NCBI GenBank assembly: GCA_022562935.1 | Contig: JADFOI010000003.1 | Location: forward strand, 1 to 58,555 | Length of the DNA: 58,555 bases | Direction of reading: 5' to 3' | DNA from: Acidobacteriota bacterium | Lineage (GTDB): Bacteria > Acidobacteriota > UBA6911 > RPQK01 > JADFOI01 | Part shown: positions 54,366 through 55,845 of the stretch, piece by piece | Numbering within the stretch: the first letter of the stretch is position 1 | Layout of the letters: each line of letters begins with the position of its first letter | Position numbers and translations under genes: made by a program | The notes under the pieces: generated by a model | The model's input: the letters and a program-made list of their open reading frames with translations, nothing else | What the model was told of the DNA's origin: nothing | The model's database searches: none

Positions 54366-54440
54366 GCGGGAGTAATTCAGCGGTAGAATGCCAGCTTCCC
54401 AAGCTGGACGTCGCGGGTTCGATTCCCGTCTCCCGCTCCA
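54366..54440 (+). tRNA. tRNA-Gly(CCC), CCA encoded
   Basis: GCGGGAGTAATTCAGCGGTAGAATGCCAGCTTCCCAAGCTGGACGTCGCGGGTTCGATTCCCGTCTCCCGCTCCA cloverleaf. Confidence 0.97.
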
Positions 54441-55722
54441 CTTTAACTCTTTATTAATCAATTATTTAAGTCAAGTTTAGTGAAGTGTCGTAAAACGACA
54501 AATTGGGCCAGGGTGCGGATAGGGTGCGGATTTAGATGGTGAAGATAGGGTGGATTTGGGTTGATTGTGGCGATCGGTCTATTTTACTTTTTCCTTTGAG
54601 TCACCAGACCAGCTTTCAATAAGATCGGATAAACATCAGTGTCATGTTTCATTATTCTTATTTTGGTATCTACAGAATCCATGGGCGTCACAATATATCC
54701 CGCTTTTGTGGCAGCTTGTTGGAAGTCAGGATCACGCATGGTCTTCAGAAATAAATCCTCCAGCAGCATGCGTCTCCCGTAAGGCACACCTTTTGGCAGA
54801 AACAAGGCTCTCCAATCACCTGCTATCAAGTCATAACCTTGTTCTGAAAAGGTGGGGACATCCGGTGCTTTGAAATGCCTCTGATTAGAAGTCACCCCTA
54901 AAATCCTGACTGCCCCAGATTTATGTTCCTCCGAAACGATAGGTACCGGCAACGTTGCAGATTGCACTTCACCGGACAGCAATGCCGCCTTAGCTGCTGG
55001 ATACCCGCTATAGGGCACCTGAGACATGTTCACATTCAAAGAATTTTCGATGAAGGAAGCGACAATTGCTGATGAGCCACCGGGAGGGTCGGTACCATTT
55101 TTCAATGAGCCAGGATCACTCTTTAGCTTTTCAAAATATTGGTTTAAATTTTTTATACCCGTGTCGGCCCTCACGGACAAAGCTCCGGGGTCTGGGCCAA
55201 AAAAAACCAAAGGATCAATATCGTTCAATTCTATAGCACTTGGATTGCTGTAGTTCCGTGCGACAAAACTTGATCCCATTATCCCTACAGTGTATCCATC
55301 GGCTTTTGCTTCCGAAGCGAATCTGACACCCGCTGCGCCACCGGCACCGGTCACGTTTTTAACAATAACTGCTACTCCCGCTTTTTCTGAAGCGAACTTT
55401 GCAATCAGTCTGGATACCGTGTCTGATCCCCCTCCTACTTGCCAATTACAAATAATCGTAATGGTGTCATCAGGGTACTCATTTGCGAGGCCAACTCCTC
55501 CAGCTAGGAGAAGAAACACCATTCCAAGTAACACTCTGCGGATCATGCTCATCATATTCACCTTTGAGCTTAAGGATCTGAATACAATTCAGACTTTATT
55601 GCTTGAATTTCGCGCAGAATAATCACTACGAGAAGCGTTTGTCAAGGTTAGAATCCCAAGCTGGACGTCGCGGGTTCGATTCTTCACTTCGCTCAGATAA
55701 AGGCGACCCGTCTCCCGCTCCA
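54397..55722. mobile_element. tRNA-Gly-anchored 1,257-bp integrase-less cassette bounded by att-like repeats
   Basis: The tRNA 3' part from the anticodon loop (54397-54440) recurs at 55654-55722; about 120 bp of downstream flank is also duplicated. Confidence 0.75.
54584..55555 (-). CDS. Tripartite tricarboxylate transporter substrate-binding protein (TctC/Bug)
   Basis: Signal peptide; GGGSDTVSR, VKNVTGAGG..G, DGYTV, VPYSG, ALLSGEV, PDVPTFSEQG, WRALFLPKG. Confidence 0.92.
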   Translation of the reverse strand: MMSMIRRVLLGMVFLLLAGGVGLANEYPDDTITIICNWQVGGGSDTVSRLIAKFASEKAGVAVIVKNVTGAGGAAGVRFASEAKADGYTVGIMGSSFVARNYSNPSAIELNDIDPLVFFGPDPGALSVRADTGIKNLNQYFEKLKSDPGSLKNGTDPPGGSSAIVASFIENSLNVNMSQVPYSGYPAAKAALLSGEVQSATLPVPIVSEEHKSGAVRILGVTSNQRHFKAPDVPTFSEQGYDLIAGDWRALFLPKGVPYGRRMLLEDLFLKTMRDPDFQQAATKAGYIVTPMDSVDTKIRIMKHDTDVYPILLKAGLVTQRKK

Positions 55723-55845
55723 ATCTAACTCATTATTAATCAATTATTTAAGTTCATTTAACCAGGGTGTCGTAAAAGGACAAATAGGGCCAGGGTGCGG
55801 ATAGGGTGCGGATTTGGGTGGTGAAAATTAGGTGTATTTGGGTGG
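55654..55845 (+). repeat. att-like copy of the tRNA-Gly 3' end with a 25-nt insertion, plus duplicated flank with tandem AGGGTGCGGAT
   Basis: Direct alignment to 54397-54562. The 11-mer doublet lies at 54510-54531 and 55792-55813. Confidence 0.9.

Follow-up and report, generated by a model that had tools for sequence, protein, structure and literature searches.

In the genome of an uncultured acidobacterium, the tctC gene of a Bug-family periplasmic substrate-binding protein lies between an intact tRNA-Gly(CCC) gene and a partial copy of it. The interval is located near the end of a stretch of 58,555 nucleotides (nt), hereafter the window, which is the whole contig C154 of a metagenome-assembled genome (MAG) comprising 188 contigs and 3.44 Mb with a completeness of 89%. 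The original prediction, made from the letters of the window, saw a minimal one-gene island with duplicated attachment (att)-like cores that could be mobilised in trans like an integron-style cassette. Our analysis makes it reasonably probable that the locus is a decayed accretion product at a tRNA hot spot, resembling the remnant of a cis-mobilizable element (CIME) rather than an integron-like cassette. The interval would then belong to a long-lived integration hot spot at tRNA-Gly(CCC) in one family of Acidobacteriota, of which it would be the part nearest to the tRNA. A tyrosine integrase family would recombine in the anticodon loop of the tRNA and use 11-bp arm-type sites (AGGGTGCGGAT, usually as a doublet), and successive integrations (tandem accretion) would each have left behind a tRNA 3' half with a P' arm of about 150 nt. 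The alpha module on the intact tRNA would be followed by an older, decaying beta module, and the DNA between the two, no longer an element, would be a 1.09-kb unit acquired from another lineage and made up of tctC and a promoter of its own.

The two core-plus-arm copies belong to different subtypes

The genomes compared were MAGs, with G003 being a complete genome; tRNA genes were called with ARAGORN and protein families were assigned by Pfam and NCBIfam. The intact tRNA-Gly(CCC) gene is located at 54366-54440 on the forward strand (anticodon 54398-54400), and its 3' part from position 54397 represents core copy 1 (O). A repeat search combined with pairwise alignment revealed a 29-nt exact repeat (54397-54425 and 55654-55682, spacing 1,257 bp), which starts at the second base of the anticodon loop, and a 137-nt repeat with 85% identity (54425-54561 and 55707-55843, spacing 1,282 bp). 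The spacings differ by 25 bp because core copy 2 (O*, 55654-55722, forward strand), a partial tRNA-Gly extending from the anticodon loop to CCA, is split in its T-loop by a 25-nt insertion (TTCACTTCGCTCAGATAAAGGCGAC, at about 55683-55707). As copy 2 matched copy 1 with E = 7.8e-40 in the whole-genome search, the similarity of the two copies is far above chance.

Core copy 1 is followed by a P' arm which in an alignment of 18 arms from 10 genomes belongs to subtype alpha (54441-54568, forward strand), and O* by an arm of subtype beta (55723-55856, forward strand). Both arms consist of an AT tract, a palindrome, a doublet of AGGGTGCGGAT and a G-rich tail. In the alpha arm the palindrome TGTCGTAAAACGACA is at 54486-54500 and the doublet at 54510-54531, and the tail, with GGTG at a period of about 11 nt, is shortened at the start of the cargo. 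In the beta arm the palindrome TGTCGTAAAAGGACA at 55768-55782 differs from TGTCGTAAAACGACA by one mismatch, the doublet is at 55792-55813, and the tail is complete with its GGGAACT end. Thus, the cores 1,257 bp apart that begin in the anticodon loop, the AT tracts, the palindromes and the doublets are all present in both copies as originally described; the T-loop insertion in copy 2 had been overlooked.

The alpha arm of copy 1 was most closely related to the arm of G001 (94% identity), and the beta arm of copy 2 was 92-96% identical to the arms of L063, L068, G002 and L070, whereas the two arms of the window were only 85% identical to each other. Since the copies represent different subtypes with closer kin elsewhere, they did not arise by local duplication, in agreement with the earlier proposal of a tandem array of related elements. 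We therefore regard it as very unlikely that the second copy was generated by unequal crossing-over or slippage and that tctC was afterwards inserted by an ISCR/IS91-like transposon. Moreover, copy 2 is orthologous to the arms of G002 and L070, which have other DNA upstream, and the independent partial tRNA copies (C103, G003, L062, L065, L067, L070) all begin in the anticodon loop, which is the mark of a site-specific crossover. What this scenario has in its favour are the ISCR-like remnants described below.

We also considered that the contig could be a chimera joined at the repeated tRNA and arm, an assembly artefact which would be conceivable in a MAG of 188 contigs and in a contig that ends inside a copy of a tRNA-Val repeat. 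This appears extremely improbable, as an independent metagenome contig (L064) spans positions 54789-58398 at 99.3% identity, contigs of G004 and G001 span rlmN, the tRNA and the arm, and the junction of tctC with the arm tail recurs in four other contigs at 88% identity. In addition, the copies share just 29 exact bases, which is insufficient to mislead an assembler.

The attL-like site of the tctC interval is intact. The distal site is a core that carries the 25-nt insertion, and a motif scan found no P-arm doublet upstream of it, whereas complete P-O-P' junctions possess one.

The 11-mer doublet adjoins integrase genes of one family

The exact 11-mer AGGGTGCGGAT occurs 12 times in the MAG, and eight of these occurrences form four doublets at 11-nt spacing. 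The MAG encodes three intact integrases of one family (on contigs C1, C60 and C179; 51-54% mutual identity) with a Phage_integrase plus SAM-like architecture, each of which has a doublet or near-doublet directly past its stop codon. With the loci of G005 and G008 included, canonical elements of this genome and of the genus have the doublet next to five integrase genes of this family, at a distance of 5-60 nt from the stop codon. In both loci with a tRNA gene in reach, the doublet lies between the integrase and the tRNA gene, the order being tRNA, 50-70 nt, doublet and convergent integrase (C1 at tRNA-Gly(GCC) and G005 at tRNA-Ala). Neither C60, where the doublet abuts a putative radC gene, nor C179 carries a tRNA gene, and none was found within the 3.3-kb locus of G008.

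Contig C1 (1-5423) contains an apparently intact small integrative element at tRNA-Gly(GCC), with genes for HicB, AAA_25, HTH_17 (excisionase-like) and the integrase. The other (right) end of this element is the start of contig C170 (1-200), where a partial tRNA-Gly(GCC) starting in the anticodon loop is preceded, at a distance of about 100 nt, by a P-arm doublet. On C1, the integrase has an open frame that extends through the arm doublet into the tRNA gene.

Because the doublets adjoin integrase genes, we read them as arm-type sites of tyrosine integrases and the tRNA 3' half as the core, which bears out the view that the repeats are att-type sites with a crossover in the anticodon loop. We infer that the 11-mers are bound by the integrase N-terminus. 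As in lambda-like and P4-like arm sites, the 11-bp repeats are direct, have helical spacing, flank the core on either side wherever the junction is complete (C103, C170, L065, L067, L070) and adjoin the integrase gene in intact elements. Unlike in those systems, the N-termini of the integrases (about 60-90 aa before the SAM-like domain) matched no Pfam arm-binding family, the role of the arm sites is here a reading of the sequence, and an exact 22-mer is conserved across phyla just past tRNA terminator hairpins. This 22-mer, AGGGTGCGGATAGGGTGCGGAT, was observed about 47-57 nt behind tRNA-Met, tRNA-Arg, tRNA-Asp and tRNA-Leu genes (L040:5050-5200; L044:5649-5791; L038; L045) in MAGs labelled Desulfobacteraceae, Acidobacteriota, delta proteobacterium and Geobacteraceae, and in the two sequences inspected (L040 and L044) it lies right past the terminator hairpin. 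AGGGTGCGGATAGGGTGCGGAT is a very conserved arm-type motif across phyla; among the viral contigs of IMG/VR the doublet had zero exact matches.

The original prediction named the identification of a cognate integrase and a search for the doublet elsewhere as checks. Doublets do recur, in the MAG as well as beside integrase genes and tRNAs in relatives, and a doublet-linked integrase family is present, but none of the 15 family genomes checked had an integrase beside tRNA-Gly(CCC). Furthermore, the complete genome G003, which has the same architecture, encodes no integrase of the doublet-linked family at E <= 1e-10, and a search for the tRNA-Gly(CCC)-plus-doublet pattern in 401 genomes of the phylum matched only this family and recovered no canonical element.

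The tctC unit is of foreign origin

According to blastn and alignments, the tctC unit covers 1,082 bp on the reverse strand (54569-55650) and comprises a promoter-like site, a ribosome-binding site, tctC and the first bases of an ISCR-like remnant. The gene itself (54584-55561, reverse strand) encodes a protein of 325 aa with a hydrophobic, signal-like N-terminus, which matched Pfam PF03401 (E = 8.9e-36, profile positions 1-256 of 274) and none of the NCBIfam models. A consensus scan detected a sigma-70-like promoter, TTGACA-18 nt-TATTCT, at 55616-55645 on the reverse strand, at the edge of the unit and 8 nt from core copy 2. tctC is the only open reading frame (ORF) with a family match between the repeats, and the G+C content over it is 44-49% compared with 56-63% in the flanking genes. 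No integrase was found between 54441 and 55653, the interval contains neither an excisionase gene nor P-arm sites, and TctA (PF01970) had no match in the 89%-complete MAG. The AT-richer tctC is therefore indeed the sole cargo, as the original prediction had it.

The closest TctC proteins were about 90% identical to that of the window. At the nucleotide level, positions 54569-55650 aligned with L059:7547-8640 at 95.7% identity over 1,094 aligned positions, including 90 nt upstream of the gene, and the promoter-like sequence is identical upstream of the second tctC gene (tctC-2) in L059. The other genes of L059 were only 64-74% identical to their homologues in this MAG. The homology between L059 and the tctC unit extends exactly to where the alpha arm ends, and in the other direction it breaks off 3 nt from core copy 2. 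These results show that the tctC unit is foreign, that it was transferred recently and that it is discrete, with sharp borders. A rough comparison of the window gene with tctC-2 of L059 gave a ratio of non-synonymous to synonymous substitution rates (dN/dS) of about 0.5, and the gene is intact.

L059 is a 1.2-Mb metagenome contig which, like its near-twin L060, has two tandem tctC genes behind the gene of a sodium:solute symporter family (SSF) protein. This SSF gene stands in the place of tctA/tctB both in L059 (4437-8616) and in L083-L086, and such a combination of a TTT-type binding protein and an SSF transporter would be unusual. Neither a second TctC nor a homologue of the L059 symporter was found by tblastn in the MAG of the window. 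Each tctC of L059 is followed by a C-terminal remnant of a transposase-like gene, together with which tctC has been tandemly duplicated, and the same remnant occurs in the unit of G003. A composite of the G003 and L059 remnants gave a weak NCBIfam match to ISCR clade Ia (E = 5.2e-5, positions 450-487 of 509, i.e., 38 residues), and Pfam gave nothing above the cut-off for this IS91-like remnant. Of the transposase, only C-terminal remnants are present.

In the four contigs L083-L086 (88% identity) an arm tail and doublet adjoin the 3' side of the tctC unit, and the 3' remnant of a TPR-protein gene adjoins its 5' side. The unit is thus discrete, and an ancestor common to the window and these contigs already had it beside an arm. 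The arm-side ISCR-like remnants become progressively shorter: L059 has more than 200 nt, L083-L086 have 19 nt and the window has 7 nt. This shortening and the remnants which flank tctC in L059 and recur in the G003 unit count in favour of the very unlikely scenario of transposon insertion after local duplication. We also examined contig C103 of this MAG, with its order of arm, TPR remnant and SSF symporter, as a possible L083-type context minus the tctC unit; it was rejected, as the SSF genes have no DNA similarity and only the arms match.

The arm is a recurrent module and the units behind it vary

The full 150-nt arm (AT tract, palindrome, doublet, G-rich tail and GGGAACT end) was present in 14 of the 41 relatives searched for it, behind tRNA-Gly(CCC), tRNA-Pro(TGG), tRNA-Lys(TTT) and partial tRNA copies, and the 18 aligned arms fell into the two subtypes alpha and beta. 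Pro-type arms have CCCT-CAAA-AGGG at the position of the palindrome, the inverted repeat thus being kept and its sequence not. Several long arms continue into the 3' end of a TPR-protein gene. No integrase was found behind the long arms: in G005, G009 and G013, where one was expected, the arms were followed by insertion sequence (IS) elements, TPR genes or small ORFs. Complete junctions consisting of a P arm with doublet, a core and a P' arm were detected in C103, L065, L067 and L070. C103 (1780-3200) represents a complete attP-like junction with an integrase pseudogene, higB/higA, the P-arm doublet, a partial tRNA-Gly(CCC) and a beta arm. The 25-nt T-loop insertion of copy 2 recurs in identical form in L063, which is the ortholog of C103 at 96% identity and a different locus from that of the window; C103 itself is without it.

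Contigs of close relatives, namely G004 (98% identity to the window before the divergence), G001 (97%), and L066 and L069 (92.5% in rlmN), follow the order of the window over rlmN, the tRNA and the arm as far as about position 54561 and diverge beyond it. The first unit behind the arm is tctC in reverse orientation in this MAG; in G003 it is a lipocalin-like gene with remnants in forward orientation (1.2 kb), followed by a core and a beta arm; in G005 it encodes a 559-aa protein with a hydrophobic N-terminus (2.1 kb); and in G006 and L070 it is a putative outer-membrane barrel gene, identified by eye. The locus is thus not invariant, and other single-gene cargoes occur between such repeats in relatives, as expected from the original prediction. 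Cargo orientation is mixed, with that of G003 opposite to the window, and the point in the arm tail at which the cargo is joined differs from unit to unit. The arrays are short, comprising 2-3 modules, also in the complete genome.

Behind the beta arm of the window we identified by Pfam and by alignment to G002 and G003 a conserved DEAD-box helicase block (55857-57342, forward strand; gene at 56113-57342). Copy 2 is orthologous to the arm beside this block in G002 and L070, with the same junction; the doublet of the orthologous beta arm is degenerate in G002, and in G003 the arm is almost erased. Modules of att type are also present past the helicase, as a full core with beta arm (O-P'beta) in L062 and as a doublet in G003. 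Since the helicase block is flanked on both sides by such modules in relatives, the hot spot extends beyond the tctC interval. The unit order varies, the helicase being located before the block of TPR to KatG genes in L062 and after it in G003. At the core and beta arm of G003 this block measures about 11 kb (L029 5662-16750) and encodes HTH_17+TPR, CarboxypepD_reg, CREG/PNPOx, KatG and BNR proteins, and in other genomes (L062, L015, L026) it is split by modules of partial tRNA and arm, between KatG and BNR or between KatG and DEAD-box genes. Several of the block junctions read CAATCTACGTTCGATT up to a breakpoint in the T-loop, which implies a second crossover sublocation in the same tRNA.

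Integrase remnants and the end of the contig

At 58206-58400 on the reverse strand, 2.4 kb past the interval, Pfam detected a 65-aa C-terminal fragment of a tyrosine integrase (HxxR...Y region), a pseudogene remnant with a full-length relative in G011 (74% identity over the fragment). This fragment and the integrase pseudogene of C103 were considered as candidates for the missing cognate enzyme and rejected, as the full-length relative in G011 has the doublet GTC(C)TGTTTA and not AGGGTGCGGAT. Both belong to a different integrase subfamily. A conserved region of about 130 nt (58140-58210 in the window; L071:1400-1470) lies past the stop codon of the fragment, of the frameshifted C103 pseudogene and of the G011 integrase, and contains the doublet GTC(C)TGTTTA at an 11-nt period, distinct from AGGGTGCGGAT. 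This suggests a second pair of integrase and arm site in the same hot spot.

The contig end itself (58400-58555, reverse strand) was found to be a second copy of the 3' part of tRNA-Val(TAC) with an arm of about 110 nt in which the motif GGGGCAGGTCA is repeated, and this arm is fused directly to the integrase C-terminal fragment. The intact tRNA-Val(TAC) locus is situated 52 kb away on the same strand (6245-6445, reverse). The contig end is a second att-type duplication and the probable cause of the assembly break. In addition, a dispersed repeat of about 90-120 nt (57947-58067 in the window, beginning with AAACCCCTACGGATAAAACCTATTTTCTCGGGCTGGCACGGAATGAG) recurs beside att modules, with copies of 80-91% identity at two places each in G003 and L062 and also in L063 and L068.

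Discussion

The comparison presented above bears on whether the tctC interval is a relic or a working unit. With integrase, excisionase and P arm all missing, the tctC unit would represent a CIME-like remnant that is probably immobile now. The insertion in the core of copy 2, the mismatch in its palindrome, the missing P-arm doublet and the degenerate or erased state of the orthologous arms may all be taken as signs of decay. Today the interval most likely does no more than provide an orphan binding-protein gene, transcribed from a promoter of its own, with a site of expression.

According to the definition quoted in PMC5704250, CIMEs and their tandem accretion are described for ICESt1 and ICESt3 of Streptococcus thermophilus. 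Like a CIME, the tctC interval adjoins a tRNA gene at its 3' end, is bounded by direct core repeats, lacks integrase and transfer genes, and stands in tandem with other att-bounded units whose contents differ among strains. Unlike in a CIME, the distal site in the window is no clean attR, since the P arm is absent, the P' arm of the next unit follows and the core carries the 25-nt insertion. The cargo is, furthermore, a single gene that seemingly arrived by an ISCR-like route, and, unlike for the CIMEs of ICESt1 and ICESt3, the host is an uncultured acidobacterium and a partner element with a matching integrase is not known.

The second known pattern concerns the position of the crossover within the tRNA gene. 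In our modules the conserved block of identity starts in the anticodon loop and continues to the tRNA 3' end, partial tRNA copies of several generations occur, and a second class of breakpoints lies in the T-loop, where both the CAATCTACGTTCGATT junctions and the insertion point of O* are found. This resembles the sublocation preference of tyrosine integrases at tRNA and tmRNA sites and the degenerate tandem islands that Williams reportedly described in 2002 and 2003. Unlike at known tRNA sites, a long conserved P' arm of about 150 nt recurs behind three tRNAs without an adjacent integrase, so that the arm and not an integrase gene is the conserved neighbour of the core.

The most probable alternative is a working miniature element, in which the core, the alpha arm and tctC would be excised together as a circle, by recombination of the two directly repeated core-plus-P'-arm sites, and re-inserted at any tRNA-Gly core by an integrase acting in trans, with shuffling of the integron kind. 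We consider this unlikely. Several observations nevertheless count in its favour and against a mere remnant. The alpha arm and both doublets of the window are intact, and the arm motif is matched exactly or almost exactly at three intact integrases of the MAG (C1, C60, C179). The cargo lies within 3 nt of the core, a border which is expected of a boundary set by crossover and not of random deletions. The metagenome contigs L067 and L070 have complete P-O-P' junctions beside single genes, which could be circular or tandem forms of small elements. In five species the same position is taken by units of 1.1-2.1 kb with different single genes, and the O-P'beta-TPR unit follows the DEAD-box block in L062 and precedes it in G003. 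Finally, the O*-P'beta module bears the same 25-nt insertion at two loci, that of the window and that of L063, and this identity points to a recent exchange of sequence between modules, which could have been brought about by homologous recombination or by integrase.

Against the miniature element, the P arm is absent and the distal core is damaged, the arm/cargo junctions vary among units, the arrays comprise just 2-3 modules, and none of the 15 family genomes has an integrase at tRNA-Gly(CCC). No circle or empty-site contig was found among 10 metagenome matches. The tctC unit also exists without cores, beside ISCR-like remnants, and this indicates another route of gene delivery, which was likely ISCR-like. 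Moreover, the permutations and the sharing of alleles would be expected just as well if the 190-nt modules underwent homologous recombination with one another. We thus retain the explanation that the interval is a remnant of accretion and decay.

A bolder possibility, which we hold to be rather improbable, is that an integrase in trans could use the module of about 195 nt, in which the tRNA 3' half (starting at the anticodon loop) is joined to the P' arm to GGGAACTGG, as a self-sufficient site and excise and re-insert any DNA between two modules, the family thereby keeping a cassette array without an integrase. If so, a tRNA-anchored array would trade single genes, mostly with signal-like N-termini, and even multi-gene blocks (KatG, DEAD-box helicase), and it would be a functional analogue of integron cassettes built from lambda-type att arms. 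The likeness to integron cassettes lies in short, mostly single-gene units between repeated site modules and in contents that differ between close relatives. The analogy fails for each of the defining features open to testing: an IntI-type integrase, an attI and a folded attC-like site are all absent, the array starts with a tRNA gene, the unit has its own promoter-like site, orientations are mixed, modules number 2-3, and one unit border is not fixed, with the arm/cargo junction varying. The integron analogy of the original prediction is thus not supported.

The locus is best understood as what accretion and decay ordinarily produce, a scar of a known kind at a tRNA hot spot, with single-gene contents that differ between close relatives. 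It documents the organisation of a tRNA hot spot in a little-studied phylum, with a core, two arm subtypes and a strongly conserved 11-bp motif. As the 22-mer follows tRNA genes in Desulfobacterota and in other Acidobacteriota, the motif can be used to find the borders of elements in other MAGs. If the modules were active without a resident integrase, they would represent a second, independent way to build cassette arrays. The tctC unit is a concrete case of recent transfer, with 96% identity over 1.09 kb in genomes that differ by 26-36% in their other genes, and the first gene behind tRNA-Gly(CCC) has been replaced between close relatives.

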